IMG/VR virus record: IMGVR_UViG_2602041905_000015
Reading direction: 5' to 3' (one strand)
Length of the DNA stretch: 4,341 nucleotides
Origin: a virus
Taxonomy: Duplodnaviria; Heunggongvirae; Uroviricota; Caudoviricetes
Position numbers and translations under genes: made by a program. A model generated the notes under the pieces. The model was not told the origin of the DNA. It made no database searches and saw only the letters and a list, made by a program, of their open reading frames with translations. This document shows, piece by piece, positions 1 to 4,341 of the stretch; position 1 is the stretch's first letter; each line of letters begins with the position of its first letter.

Positions 1-2
1 TG

Positions 3-163
3 ATGCCGGATGATGGTGCGCCGTTCCGCTACAGCTTCAGCGCCCTGAAAGACCGCCATAATGCTAAAAAAAAAACCGGTATGGAACGGGCAGACGCTGG
101 GGAGACGGCGACAGAGCTTGTGGAGGACACGCAGGCCATTGCCCGTTACGGTCGTAACGTCAC
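3..163 (+). CDS. J: Redundant J fragment (frame 0) with a 36-nt non-canonical block and A10 tract
   Basis: Translates to …DDGAPFRYSFSALKDRHNA-KKKTGMERADAG-ETATELVEDTQAIARYGRNV. Flanks match J, but nt 66-101 replace the VEVNWIDPDNG(W) block that appears in the second copy at 223-255. Ends at an N-run. Confidence 0.6.
17..65 (+). repeat. 49-bp direct repeat, copy 1 (identical to 174-222)
   Basis: tgcgccgttccgctacagcttcagcgccctgaaagaccgccataatgct occurs at 17-65 and again at 174-222, read directly from the sequence. Confidence 0.9.
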
Positions 164-173
164 NNNNNNNNNN
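164..173. other. N-run (10 nt): gap or masked placeholder
   Basis: Ten consecutive N; the reading frame changes across it. Confidence 0.95.
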
Positions 174-222
174 TGCGCCGTTCCGCTACAGCTTCAGCGC
201 CCTGAAAGACCGCCATAATGCT
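174..222 (+). repeat. 49-bp direct repeat, copy 2 (identical to 17-65)
   Basis: Same 49-mer as 17-65, placed immediately after the N-run 164-173. Confidence 0.9.
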
Positions 223-255
223 GTTGAGGTGAACTGGATTGACCCGGATAACGGC
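175..255 (+). CDS. J: Second overlapping J fragment (frame 1): APFRYSFSALKDRHNAVEVNWIDPDNG
   Basis: nt 174-222 are identical to nt 17-65; the fragment continues with the canonical-looking J sequence and is bounded by N-runs on both sides. It sits in a different frame from both the 3..163 fragment and the main J body. Confidence 0.7.
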
Positions 256-265
256 NNNNNNNNNN
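256..265. other. N-run (10 nt): placeholder hiding about 137 nt of J
   Basis: Upstream J sequence ends at …DPDNG and downstream resumes at LLETQ. The intervening J segment, as I recall it from lambda, is about 46 codons and includes ETATELVEDTQAIARYGRNV, which in this window appears misplaced at 101-163. Confidence 0.8.
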
Positions 266-2318
266 ACTGCTGGAGACGCAGACCGTGGATTTCAGCGTGG
301 GTGCTGAAGGGCTTCGCCATGTACCGGGCGATGTCATTGAAATCTGCGATGATGACTATGCCGGTATCAGCACCGGTGGTCGCGTGCTGGCGGTGAACAG
401 CCAGACCCGGACGCTGACGCTCGACCGTGAAATCACGCTGCCATCCTCCGGTACCACGCTGATAAGCCTGGTTGACGGTCAGGGTAATCCGGTCAGCGTG
501 GAGGTCCAGTCCGTCACCGACGGCGTGAAGGTGAAAGTGAGCCGTGTTCCTGACGGCGTTGCAGAATACAGCGTGTGGGGGCTGAAGCTGCCGACGCTGC
601 GCCAGCGCCTGTTCCGCTGCGTGAGTATCCGTGAGAACGATGACGGCACGTATGCCATCACCGCCGTGCAGCATGTACCGGAGAAAGAAGCCATCGTGGA
701 TAACGGGGCGCACTTTGACGGTGACCAGAGCGGCACGGTGAATGGTGTCACGCCGCCAGCAGTGCAGCACCTGACCGCCGAAGTCACTGCAGACAGCGGG
801 GAATATCAGGTGCTGGCGCGATGGGACACACCGAAGGTGGTGAAGGGCGTGAGCTTCCTGCTCCGTCTGACCGTAACAGCGGACGACGGCAGTGAGCGAC
901 TGGTCAGCACGGCCCGGACGACGGAAACCACATACCGCTTCACGCAACTGGCGCTGGGGAACTACAGGCTGACAGTCCGGGCGGTAAATGCCCGGGGGCA
1001 GCAGGGCGATCCGGCGTCGGTATCGTTCCGGATTGCCGCACCGGCAGCACCGTCGAGGATTGAGCTGACGCCGGGCTATTTTCAGATAACCGCCACGCCG
1101 CATCTTGCTGTTTATGACCCGACGGTACAGTTTGAGTTCTGGTTCTCGGAAAAGCGGATTACCGATATCAGGCAGGTTGAAACCACAGCCCGCTATCTTG
1201 GTACGGCGCTGTACTGGATAGCCGCCAGTATCAATATCAAACCGGGCCATGATTATTATTTTTACGTTCGCAGTGTGAACACCGTTGGCAAATCGGCATT
1301 CGTGGAGGCTGTCGGTCGGGCGAGCGATGATGCGGAAGGTTACCTGGATTTTTTCAAAGGAGAAATCGGGAAAACACATCTGGCCCAGGAGTTGTGGACG
1401 CAGATTGATAACGGTCAGCTTGCGCCGGACCTGGCTGAAATCAGGACGTCCATTACGAATGTCAGCAATGAAATCACGCAGACCGTCAATAAAAAACTGG
1501 AAGACCAGAGTGCGGCAATCCAGCAGATACAGAAAGTTCAGGTTGATACAAATAATAACCTGAACAGCATGTGGGCCGTGAAACTGCAGCAGATGAAGGA
1601 CGGACGCCTTTATATTGCGGGTATCGGAGCCGGTATTGAGAATACGCCAGCAGGTATGCAGAGTCAGGTGCTTCTGGCTGCTGACCGGATTGCGATGATT
1701 AATCCTGCGAATGGCAACACAAAGCCGATGTTTGTTGGTCAGGGCGATCAGATATTCATGAACGACGTGTTCCTGAAACGCCTGACGGCTCCGACCATTA
1801 CCAGCGGCGGTAATCCTCCGGCATTTTCCCTGACACCGGACGGGCGGCTGACGGCGAAAAATGCCGATATCAGCGGTAACGTGAATGCGAACTCCGGGAC
1901 GCTCAACAACNNNNNNNNNNNNNNNNNNNNAGCTTTCCCCCGGGACTCCCGTGCACCGGAACGGTGGCCATCAGGGACCATCACCGTCAGGGTTTATGAC
2001 GATCAGCCGTTTGACCGGCAGATTGTTATTCCGGCGGTGGCATTCAGCGGCGCTAAACATGAGCGGGAGAATAACGATATTTATTCGTCATGCCGCCTGA
2101 TAGTACGGAAAAACGGTGCTGAAATTTATAACCGTACCGCGCTGGATAATACGCTGATTTACAGTGGTGTTATTGATATGCCAGCTGGTCGCGGCCACAT
2201 GACGCTGGAGTTTTCGGTGTCAGCATGGCTGGTGAATAACTGGTATCCCACAGCAAGTATCAGCGATTTGCTGGTTGTGGTGATGAAGAAAGCCACCGCA
2301 GGCATCAGTATCAGCTGA
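266..2318 (+). CDS. J: Tail tip host-specificity protein J, C-terminal portion (5'-partial; interrupted by N-run 1911-1930)
   Basis: Continuous frame from 267 (ctg ctg gag acg cag = LLETQ) to TGA at 2316-2318, matching track ORF 285..2318. Translation (…[56 protein letters not shown]…, later …[39 protein letters not shown]…IDMPAGRG…) matches phage lambda gpJ as I recall it, including the fibronectin-III-like middle region. Frame is the same on both sides of the 20-N run. Followed by a hairpin plus T-run. Confidence 0.93.
1911..1930. other. N-run (20 nt) inside the J C-terminal region
   Basis: Twenty N between …NANSGTLNN and [16 protein letters not shown]…; the window-coordinate frame is preserved, so the true length must be 2 mod 3. 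Confidence 0.9.
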
Positions 2319-2337
2319 ATTTTATAACCCATATACG

Positions 2338-2361
2338 GGCGCCAGAAATGGCGCCTTTTTT
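2338..2361 (+). terminator. Rho-independent terminator-like hairpin downstream of J
   Basis: ggcgcc (2338-2343), loop agaaat, ggcgcc (2350-2355), then tttttt (2356-2361), starting 20 nt after the J stop codon. Confidence 0.6.
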
Positions 2362-2374
2362 ATTGCAGAAAAGC

Positions 2375-2380
2375 GAGAGG
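2375..2380 (+). promoter_or_regulatory. Shine-Dalgarno sequence for lom
   Basis: gagagg lies 5 nt upstream of the ATG at 2386. Confidence 0.6.
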
Positions 2381-2385
2381 TAATT

Positions 2386-2985
2386 ATGCGTAAAGTTTGT
2401 GCAGTCATTTTGTCCGCAGCCATCTGTCTGTCCGTATCCGGTGCGCCTGCATGGGCGTCTGAACATCAGTCCACACTGAGCGCGGGGTATCTTCATGCCC
2501 GTACGAACGCTCCCGGCAGCGATAATCTGAACGGGATTAACGTGAAATACCGTTATGAGTTTACGGACGCGCTGGGGCTGATTACGTCCTTCAGTTATGC
2601 CAATGCTGAGGATGAGCAAAAAACGCACTACAGCGATACCCGCTGGCATGAAGATTCCGTGCGTAACCGCTGGTTCAGCGTGATGGCGGGGCCGTCTGTA
2701 CGCGTGAATGAATGGTTCAGCGCGTATTCGATGGCGGGTGTGGCTTACAGCCGTGTGTCGACTTTCTCCGGGGATTATCTCCGCGTAACTGACAACAAGG
2801 GGAAAACGCACGATGTGCTGACCGGAAGTGATGACGGTCGCCACAGCAACACGTCTCTGGCGTGGGGGGCTGGCGTGCAGTTTAACCCGACCGAATCCGT
2901 GACCATTGACCTTGCTTATGAAGGTTCCGGTAGTGGCGACTGGCGAACGGATGCATTTATTGTTGGTATCGGATACCGTTTCTGA
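2386..2985 (+). CDS. lom: Outer membrane protein Lom (Ail/Lom/PagC-family 8-stranded beta-barrel), 199 aa
   Basis: ATG at 2386 with SD; TGA at 2983-2985. N-terminal signal peptide MRKVCAVILSAAICLSVSGAPAWA with an AWA-SE cleavage motif; C-terminus ends …IVGIGYRF with a terminal aromatic typical of OM beta-barrels. Sequence is near-identical to lambda Lom as I recall it. Position between J and stf matches lambda gene order. Confidence 0.93.
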   Translation: MRKVCAVILSAAICLSVSGAPAWASEHQSTLSAGYLHARTNAPGSDNLNGINVKYRYEFTDALGLITSFSYANAEDEQKTHYSDTRWHEDSVRNRWFSVMAGPSVRVNEWFSAYSMAGVAYSRVSTFSGDYLRVTDNKGKTHDVLTGSDDGRHSNTSLAWGAGVQFNPTESVTIDLAYEGSGSGDWRTDAFIVGIGYRF

Positions 2986-3090
2986 CAACAGACGCCGATT
3001 TATCTTCTGTAAATATTGTTATGATACGCAGGTTCATCCACTTTATGGGGTGAACTGCGTTTGAGGAAACGTAAAGTTACACTGTCCTGA

Positions 3091-3123
3091 AGCCCGTGGC
3101 GTCACTGCTGCGGGCTTTTTTTA
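3091..3123 (+). terminator. Rho-independent terminator-like hairpin downstream of lom
   Basis: agcccg (3091-3096) pairs with cgggct (3111-3116) across a 14-nt loop, followed by ttttttt (3117-3123). Confidence 0.55.
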
Positions 3124-3136
3124 TTGGTGGAAAAGT

Positions 3137-4341
3137 ATGACAGTAAAAATTTCTGGCGTGCTTAAAGATGGCACAGGAAAACCAGTACAGAACTGCACCA
3201 TTGTGCTGAAGGCCAGACGAACCAGCAGCACGGTGGTGGTGAACACGGTGGCCTCTGAAAATCCGGATGAAGCCGGACGTTACAGCATGGATGTTGAGCA
3301 TGGTCAGTACAGCGTCACCCTGCTGGTTGAAGGTTTTCCGCCTTCACATGCCGGGACCATTACCGTCTATGAAGGTTCCAGACCAGGTACGCTGAATGAT
3401 TTTCTCGGTGCCATGACGGAGGATGATGTCCGACCGGAGGCACTGCGCCGCTTTGAGCAGATGGTGGAAGAGGTGTCACGTAACGCCTCCGCGGTTGCAC
3501 AGAATACGGCAGCCGCGAAAAAATCAGCCAGCGATGCCAGTGCATCAGCCAGCGAGGCGGCAACTCATGCAACCGATGCTGCAGCCTCAGCACGTGCCGC
3601 CAGCACGTCAGCCGGACAGGCCGCGTCGTCGGCTCAGTCAGCGTCTTCCAGCGCAGGAACGGCATCGACAAAGGCCCGTGAAGCAGCAAAAAGTGCTGCT
3701 GCTGCAGAGTCATCAAAAAGCGCGGCAGCTACCAGCGCCAGTGCCGCGAAAACGTCAGAAACGAATGCCGCAGCGTCACAACAATCAGCAGCCACTTCTG
3801 CATCCACCGCGACCACGAAAGCGTCAGAAGCAGCCACTTCAGCACGGGATGCGTCGGCTTCAAAAGAGGCGGCAAAATCATCAGAAACGAACGCAGCCTC
3901 GAGCNNNNNNNNNNTCCTCGGCAACGGCGGCAGCAAATTCTGCGAAGGCGGCAAAAACGTCCGAGACGAACGCCAGGTCTTCTGAAACGGCAGCGGGACA
4001 GAGCGCCTCAGCTGCGGCAGACTCAAAAACAGCGGCTGCATTATCTGCCAGTGCCGCGTCAACAAGTGCCGGGCAGGCCTCAGCCAGTGCCACCGCCGCC
4101 GGAAAATCGGCAGAAAGTGCTGCATCGTCTGCTTCAACAGCCACAACGAAGGCTGGCGAAGCCGCTGTACAGGCCAGCGCAGCAGCGAGGTCTGCTTCCG
4201 CAGCGAAGACATCCAAGACGAACGCGAAAGCGTCGGAAACCAGCGCAGAATCCTCAAAAACGGCTGCCGCATCGTCCGCCAGTTCGGCGGCGTCATCGGC
4301 ATCATCTGCGTCTGCTTCAAAAGATGAGGCGACCAGACAGG
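3137..4341 (+). CDS. stf: Side tail fibre protein Stf, N-terminal portion (3'-partial at window end; N-run 3905-3914 with apparent frame change)
   Basis: ATG at 3137 preceded by ggtgg (3126-3130). Translation MTVKISGVLKDGTGKPVQNCTIVLKARR…GRYSMDVEHGQYSVTLLVEGFPPSHAGTITVYEGSRPGTLNDFL… matches the N-terminus of lambda Stf (orf-401) as I recall it. It continues into a long Ala/Ser/Thr-rich low-complexity region with recurring AAK[ST]SETNA motifs. After the N-run the coding frame continues in window frame 0 (tcc tcg gca acg… = SSATAAANSAKAAKTSETNARSSETAAGQ…) with no stop to the window end. The track's stop at 3985 comes from reading the pre-gap frame across a placeholder gap. Confidence 0.88.
3480..4341 (+). 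repeat. Degenerate periodic coding repeats (Ala/Ser-rich) within stf
   Basis: K[ST]S[EK]TNA motifs at 3749-3769, 3875-3895, 3954-3974 and 4206-4226. Spacing is 126 nt between the first two and 252 nt between the last two, giving a period of about 42 codons. Strong GCN/AGC/TCN codon bias. Confidence 0.7.
3905..3914. other. N-run (10 nt) inside the stf repeat region
   Basis: Ten N; the stf frame shifts from window frame 2 to frame 0 across it, so the true gap length must be 0 mod 3. Confidence 0.9.

Follow-up and report, generated by a model that had tools for sequence, protein, structure and literature searches.

Gene content and source of the window

The window, meaning the whole 4,341-nt stretch of DNA analysed, carries the 3' two-thirds of the tail gene J, then lom and then the 5' part of stf, and belongs to a lambdoid prophage. 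It is identical to the whole of GenBank record JQFD01002073.1 (4341 nt; assembly GCA_000742495.1), and an exact-protein look-up with the chimeric open reading frame (ORF) specific to the window matched JQFD01002073.1 only. JQFD00000000 is E. coli isolate 913, an ST95 O1:K1 strain from a neonatal nasogastric feeding-tube biofilm, which was sequenced with MiSeq v3 2x300 reads from Nextera XT libraries and assembled de novo with SPAdes, with ExSPAnder cited (PMC4620641). The window is thus a piece of a scaffolded SPAdes draft made from MiSeq reads. Judging by the contig index of 2073, a genome of about 5 Mb is split into more than 2,000 pieces, a poor assembly.

The same prophage is present at 100% identity in the ST95/B2 ExPEC strains UTI89, NU14, IHE3034, APEC O1, MS8345 and ATCC 11775; coordinates given below as reference positions are those of the UTI89 prophage locus (L002). 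Five ACGT fragments (1-163, 174-255, 266-1910, 1931-3904 and 3915-4341) make up the window, separated by N runs at 164-173 (10), 256-265 (10), 1911-1930 (20) and 3905-3914 (10). All non-N bases outside 66-99 are 100% identical to, and colinear with, the UTI89 prophage. Fragment 1 (1-163) corresponds to reference 3266-3428, with equal length, colinearity and differences confined to 66-99; fragment 2 (174-255) corresponds to 3282-3363, and the two last fragments, 1931-3904 and 3915-4341, to 5229-7202 and 7218-7644. The genes and the spacers within J are as follows:

164..173, no strand: N10 spacer between pieces that truly overlap, true distance -147 nt
256..265, no strand: N10 spacer for 137 nt (reference 3364-3500), of which 65 occur in 99-163 and 72 are missing from the record; reading frame broken
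266..1910, + strand: J coding sequence, UTI89 reference 3501-5145, 100% identical (exact match)
1911..1930, no strand: N20 spacer for 83 nt of J, frame kept by chance (from mapping to the UTI89 locus)
1931..2318, + strand: 3' end of J, stop codon included, with the greater part of the C-terminal receptor-binding domain
2386..2985, + strand: lom (Ail/Lom outer-membrane beta-barrel protein), complete
3137..4341, + strand: side tail fibre gene (stf-like), 5' part; frame broken by the N10 run 3905-3914, which stands for 15 nt

The intact, 100%-identical J homologue contains the Pfam domains FNIII-A_GpJ, Phage-tail_3, Ig_J, Ig_J_second, Phage_Tail_Tip and Ig_GpJ_C, and in intact loci the tail-tip genes run in the order L, K(C40), I, J, lom, stf. 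Both domain architecture and synteny are those of the lambda gpJ family (central tail fibre or tip attachment protein J), and the underlying gene is an ordinary member of it with L-K-I-J-lom-stf synteny. Locally, the protein is nearly identical to that of lambda J: within VEVNWIDPDNGW the sole difference is DPDNGW in the window's J against DPNNGW in lambda, the latter being the motif that the initial annotation of this DNA had correctly given for lambda J.

Measured on the reference, the true distances behind the N runs of 10, 10, 20 and 10 are -147 (an overlap), +137, +83 and +15 nt. The run lengths therefore do not match the true distances, the flanks of the first run overlap and are duplicated, and only the N20 run retains the reading frame, which it does by chance. 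Adapter masking was considered as the source of the N runs and rejected, since the flanks run colinear, with real gaps of small size between them. Fragment 2 lies wholly within the stretch covered by fragment 1, which begins 16 nt earlier and ends 65 nt later, and 72 nt (reference 3429-3500) are missing from the record before window position 266. The earlier proposal that 1-163 belongs inside the gap at 256-265 thus holds for its last 65 nt only; the rest overlaps or precedes fragment 2, and 72 nt are still missing once those 65 nt are placed. The J copy of this record is fragmented, lacks 72 and 83 nt, has one part present twice and bears in addition a 12-codon block.

The duplicated 49-mer and the substituted block

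The initial annotation had reported an identical 49-mer at 17-65 and 174-222, and the two copies are indeed 100% identical. Past the 49-mer, copy 2 continues with VEVNWIDPDNG, in agreement with that annotation and borne out by translation, and copy 1 enters a run of ten adenines at 66-75 (A10), also as annotated, and goes on to encode KKKTGMERADAG and then ETATELVEDTQAIARYGRNV. In translation, copy 1 reads ...DRHNAKKKTGMERADAGETATELVEDTQAIARYGRNV, copy 2 reads ...DRHNAVEVNWIDPDNG and intact J reads ...DRHNAVEVNWIDPDNGWETATELVEDTQ..., the native J sequence at the site of the block being GTTGAGGTGAACTGG.... The A10 tract is the longest homopolymer of the window, in which the next longest is 7; intact J has no homopolymer above 6, and the earlier judgement that such a tract is atypical of J was sound.

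At the nucleotide level, the block comprises 34 nt (66-99), of which 14 match the native bases, and it affects 12 codons. The same-length replacement of 36 nt put forward previously was right in that length is conserved; the changed bases number 34 and not 36, the figure of 36 nt being that of the 12 codons. Fragments 1 and 2 resolve into the following pieces:

1..65, + strand: J coding sequence, reference 3266-3330 (reference = window + 3265, frame B), exact match; ends on the wobble SNP site 3330
66..75, + strand: A10 filler in place of native GTTGAGGTGA; its length equals that of the 10-N spacers
76..99, + strand: displaced exact 24-mer, reference 3184-3207, from 157 nt upstream (reference = window + 3108, frame A)
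100..163, + strand: J coding sequence, reference 3365-3428, in frame B again; 1-163 keeps the exact native length
174..255, + strand: J coding sequence, reference 3282-3363, 82 nt, frame A; the non-overlapping part of K=33 edge 3249-3363 (see below)

The 24-mer encodes PVWNGQTL at its original site; in the block, where it lies one base off register, it is read as TGMERADA. The junctions of the block are blunt, and the replacement preserves length to the base. The block falls on residues 399-410, within the Phage-tail_3 domain (330-498) of J, at a site where 8 phage alleles differ by no more than 2 nucleotides within the native 34 nt. The record also contains this stretch intact, at 174-255, 108 nt further downstream.

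The layout is governed by two offsets to the reference, one (3108) shared by 76-99 and 174-255 and the other (3265) shared by 1-65 and 100-163. The lengths fit these two frames, in that 10 + 24 = 34 and 64 + 10 = 74 each fill the hole of one frame exactly. Because free concatenation of the pieces would need two independent coincidences, the layout fits a placement of pieces by coordinate.

Searches for the block and its reading as real sequence

This region of J was present in 4,331 of the 5,426 complete E. coli genomes, and all best matches had 80-90% identity (89.1% for all matches listed), a value lowered by the block. A 74-nt query centred on the block found no match in the 5,426 complete E. 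coli genomes or in 50,697 phage records, and exact-pattern scans with the left and right junctions found none in GTDB representatives, IMG/VR or JGI metagenomes. The fetched J loci contained no block, and each held the 49-mer at most once. In the related J genes and genomes compared, there was not even a short A tract at the position of the block. The comparison with other lambdoid J genes that the initial annotation had suggested likewise gave no natural occurrence, the 8 phage alleles being near-native. The block is thus not reproduced in independent genomes, as expected of an artefact. A natural J allele or mosaic is contradicted by the absence of the block elsewhere, the frame-shifted 24-mer and an A10 tract foreign to J.

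The initial annotation had offered as an alternative that two real alleles were represented. In this form, fragments 1 and 2 would be genuine J alleles of two prophages of isolate 913 and KKKTGMERADAG a real variant. ST95 genomes do have 2-5 J copies each, and sites of inter-copy SNPs coincide with piece boundaries. However, the fragments are identical to each other outside 66-99, and identical there also to both UTI89 J copies, so that the alternative fails to explain the block, and no J in the 4,331 E. coli genomes or the phage records has it. The reading would further require that a segment of the conserved Phage-tail_3 domain, whose native 34 nt vary by no more than 2 differences among the 8 phage alleles, be replaced by an out-of-frame copy and three AAA codons. 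We therefore consider two genuine alleles to be very improbable.

A real mutation in the isolate could in principle take one of two forms: gene conversion or templated patching with a source 157 nt upstream, or a site of poly-A slippage or phase variation. In certain genes of phages and bacteria, homopolymer tracts are responsible for phase variation and programmed slippage, and this general precedent, together with the preserved open reading frame, speaks for the reading. Against it, length-preserving, blunt junctions lacking microhomology are unlike the products of recombination or slippage, related genomes have no A tract at the site, the intact stretch is also in the record, 108 nt downstream, and the rest of the prophage is 100% identical to other ST95 strains. 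These observations make a real mutation of either form exceedingly improbable. The specific claim that isolate 913, or a subpopulation of it, truly has a J in which 34 nt were exchanged for A10 and a 24-nt patch from 157 nt upstream is as hard to credit; if true, it would mean that a phage tail-tip gene had undergone an unusual templated edit without change of length.

Individual routes to such an edit were also considered and rejected. Deletion at the GCTG microhomology shared by the two sites would leave 3 G, where the record has 4 G, and would alter the length. Slippage or phase variation of the A10 tract does not agree with related J genes, which are without an A tract there. A process of the kind driven by diversity-generating retroelements (DGRs), or gene conversion, does not suit an exact, out-of-frame copy with blunt junctions at an invariant site. 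The likeness to a DGR is superficial, and consists of a nearby 'template' (3184-3207) and an altered 'target' in a tail gene. Unlike a DGR target, the copy in the block is exact, out of frame and not adenine-mutagenised, and the block lies in a conserved structural domain and not at the C-terminal receptor-binding end. No reverse transcriptase was annotated in the intact homologous loci, and no variation of the DGR kind was seen at the site of the block across the genomes compared. The block thus lacks the A-specific template/variable pair of a DGR target, and the intact loci lack an annotated reverse transcriptase nearby.

Assembly-graph geometry and the origin of the block

The affected stretch lies within a 902-nt run that is identical between the two prophage J genes of UTI89. 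Among lambdoid J alleles, the piece boundaries 3282, 3330 and 3501 fall on wobble sites that vary, and site 3330 differs in every one of the 8 phage alleles of J, as it does in the second copy carried by HS13-1. HS13-1 has the prophage of the window at 100% identity and also another, SNP-bearing J copy, which differs at 3177, 3282, 3315, 3330, 3387, 3390, 3393, 3468, 3510 and further sites. De Bruijn branch points were built from the two UTI89 J genes (J1 and J2) and one HS13-1 copy, paralogues that may not be those of isolate 913.

With HS13-1-type SNPs, the K=33 graph contains an allele-specific edge, 3249-3363. When its leading 33 nt are removed, this edge becomes 3282-3363, which is fragment 2 exactly, and when its trailing 33 nt are removed, its last base is 3330, where window 1-65 also stops. 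The overlap between the two trimmed views of the edge is 82 - 33 = 49 nt, the length of the duplicated 49-mer. The block itself has a length of 34 nt, or K+1. The overlap of 33 nt had been derived before the assembler was known; 33 is one of the default k values of SPAdes (21, 33 and 55), and a final K of 33 is unusual with 2x300 reads. Graphs built at K=21 and K=55 from the same paralogues did not reproduce the ends of fragment 2 or of 1-65.

Other boundaries, at 3184, 3207, 3266, 3428, 3501, 5145, 5229, 7202 and 7218, were not reproduced with the available paralogues; the only agreement for these came from population-level SNPs, those at 3150 and 3501. Of other layouts tried, a Velvet-like one was rejected since it would require an even k of 34, and a SPAdes K=55 layout was rejected since it fits nothing. 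Several layouts of edge order and gap values fit the exact string in part, and none fits it fully. A look-up of Lom for sister assemblies of the same outbreak clone returned long contigs only.

In printing a path, SPAdes writes the full edge after an N run. If that applies here, fragment 2 would be a full edge spanning the SNPs 3315 and 3330 only; as a parse of fragment 2, this and a trimmed K=33 edge cannot be told apart here. SPAdes scaffolds also follow a convention of artificial 10-N gaps, for which a literature search gave no usable support for the '10 N' value.

The same geometry can be read with the block present in actual reads. In this account the block would have been present in a chimeric Nextera or PCR product, or in a small number of low-quality reads, from which SPAdes faithfully assembled a low-coverage tip. 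The tip, 66-163, would consist of poly-A, J 3184-3207 and J 3365-3428, with a skip of 157 nt, and this 98-nt tip would have been butted to a 98-nt piece, 3266-3363, at an assumed overlap of 33 nt. In its favour, 66-163 and the inferred 3266-3363 are both 98 nt long and their overlap would be exactly 33 nt, the block with its junction base spans K+1 = 34 nt, and the reference reads GGCT at 3361-3364 and then GGG, a context prone to Illumina errors. Weak tips may moreover have survived in so highly fragmented an assembly. It leaves unexplained, however, why the 24-mer shares its colinear frame exactly with fragment 2, for which the chance is estimated at about 1 in 1000 with a source within ±500 nt, and why the native length is kept exactly; the poly-A also comes with no adapter sequence. 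We regard a tip built from faulty reads or molecules as unlikely, if worth keeping in view. It would still make the feature an artefact, of wet-lab or base-calling origin, and the block is not genomic under either this parse or one by scaffolding.

Taken together, these results lead us to conclude that the 5' 265 nt are very probably an in-silico artefact of short-read de Bruijn assembly with SPAdes/ExSPAnder and not genomic DNA of the isolate. An artefact, in the form of a chimeric or low-quality contig, had been favoured from the start, and that preference is upheld by the fragmented SPAdes draft, by the block being found nowhere else and by its make-up of a homopolymer and a displaced, out-of-frame piece of J. 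ExSPAnder adds N symbols according to the estimated gap and, where paths overlap, tries an overlap alignment (PMC4058921, section 3.3).

Paralogous J copies probably explain why the region was shattered. The isolate would have several near-identical prophage J copies that differ at scattered wobble SNPs, and because of them the assembly graph would split J into short edges, allele-specific or shared, that overlap by K = 33. The provenance of the record, the coordinates, the absence of the block from the collections searched, the two-frame layout and the K=33 match of fragment 2 are direct results, and the exact software step and the origin of the A10 tract are inferences. The scaffolder would have joined such short pieces by estimated distance, used one stretch twice (1-65 and 174-222) and inserted nominal 10-N spacers where no overlap was accepted; fragment 1 would have been ordered before fragment 2 and not merged with it. 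In fragment 1, a 34-nt (K+1) stretch would then have kept the wrong content, namely a 10-nt filler written as A and 24 nt of a piece whose position was right for fragment 2 and not for fragment 1, in which it came to lie. Speculatively, the A10 tract, which is as long as the nominal spacer, could represent ten nucleotides of gap left unfilled and printed as A, the base with the value zero in two-bit coding of sequence; to our knowledge, no such printing of A in gaps is documented for SPAdes.

The record resembles repeat misassembly by SPAdes/ExSPAnder in its nominal N runs with truly overlapping flanks, its short pieces, in part bounded by inter-copy SNPs with a k-sized offset, and its location in a multi-copy prophage gene. 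It differs from such misassemblies in the same-length overwrite of 34 nt and in the A10 tract standing instead of N, for which we know of no documented counterpart in this software.

What the 5' end shows is an error of scaffolding or assembly that lies in an ordinary lambda-like J of a public draft genome, and is a problem of sequence quality and not of biology. Its importance is limited to data hygiene, and the record merits flagging. The spurious ORFs of the record, which include a false 71-aa ORF, an X-containing J ORF, a truncated 282-aa tail-fibre ORF and an antisense ORF, are already in protein collections. Scaffold spacers of 10 N may conceal overlaps as well as gaps, and mining of J and stf diversity, or model training, on such drafts would take in a KKKTGMERADAG variant that does not exist, along with a false duplication. 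The true sequence at this locus is the ordinary colinear J of UTI89, APEC O1 and other ST95 prophages.

A shifted frame and repeats in the tail-fibre gene

The reading frame of the stf-like tail-fibre gene is shifted by the second of the following features, in which 10 N stand in place of 15 nt in the colinear UTI89 prophage, and gene callers have therefore produced a false tail-fibre product and a spurious ORF on the opposite strand.

3137-3985, plus strand: tail-fibre ORF, false 282-aa product ending in ...XXXXLGNGGSKFCEGGKNVRDERQVF
3905-3914: N10 spacer in the tail-fibre gene, true length 15 nt
3881-4339, minus strand: spurious antisense ORF

Both the 282-aa product and the antisense ORF at 3881-4339 are held in public protein collections. 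The Ala/Ser/Thr-rich part of the gene (3674-4330) consists of degenerate direct repeats of 20-37 nt (families D1-D7). Since the scaffold end (4341) and the N10 at 3905 both lie within this part, its internal repetition was probably what broke the assembly there as well.

For a single E. coli isolate, the contig index of JQFD01002073.1 exceeds 2,000, which points to a very fragmented assembly of isolate 913. Overlaps concealed by 10-N spacers, and filler runs of this kind, may also occur in other records with the JQFD project prefix and in those of the eleven sister sets.

Reading frames and gene ends around J

Four further features lie in or directly after J and lom, as follows:

186-1379, minus strand: 397-aa antisense ORF through J, across an N run
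1911-1930: N20 spacer in J, true length 83 nt
2337-2356: terminator-like GC hairpin followed by a T run, directly after J
3089-3118: terminator-like GC hairpin followed by a T run, directly after lom

The N20 separates the Phage_Tail_Tip domain of J from its C-terminal receptor-binding domain. The frame of J is kept across it, since 83 and 20 differ by a multiple of 3, and a 677-aa J ORF with X residues is called through the spacer. The 397-aa antisense ORF is absent from the public gene set of the record, and nothing suggests that it is a gene. Terminator-like hairpins are not in excess (two observed vs 1.0 expected from shuffled sequence of the same region); despite this unremarkable count, their positions match the ends of J and lom.

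J copies of resident prophages

The J genes of two different UTI89 prophages (L002, positions 3121-4022, and L001) are perfectly identical over 902 nt and diverge outside this stretch, with 94.5% identity over window positions 266-1910. Differences in a further J copy, from HS13-1 (L023), fall almost all at third-codon positions. This pattern of identity and divergence suggests that the tail genes of resident prophages have recombined with each other.
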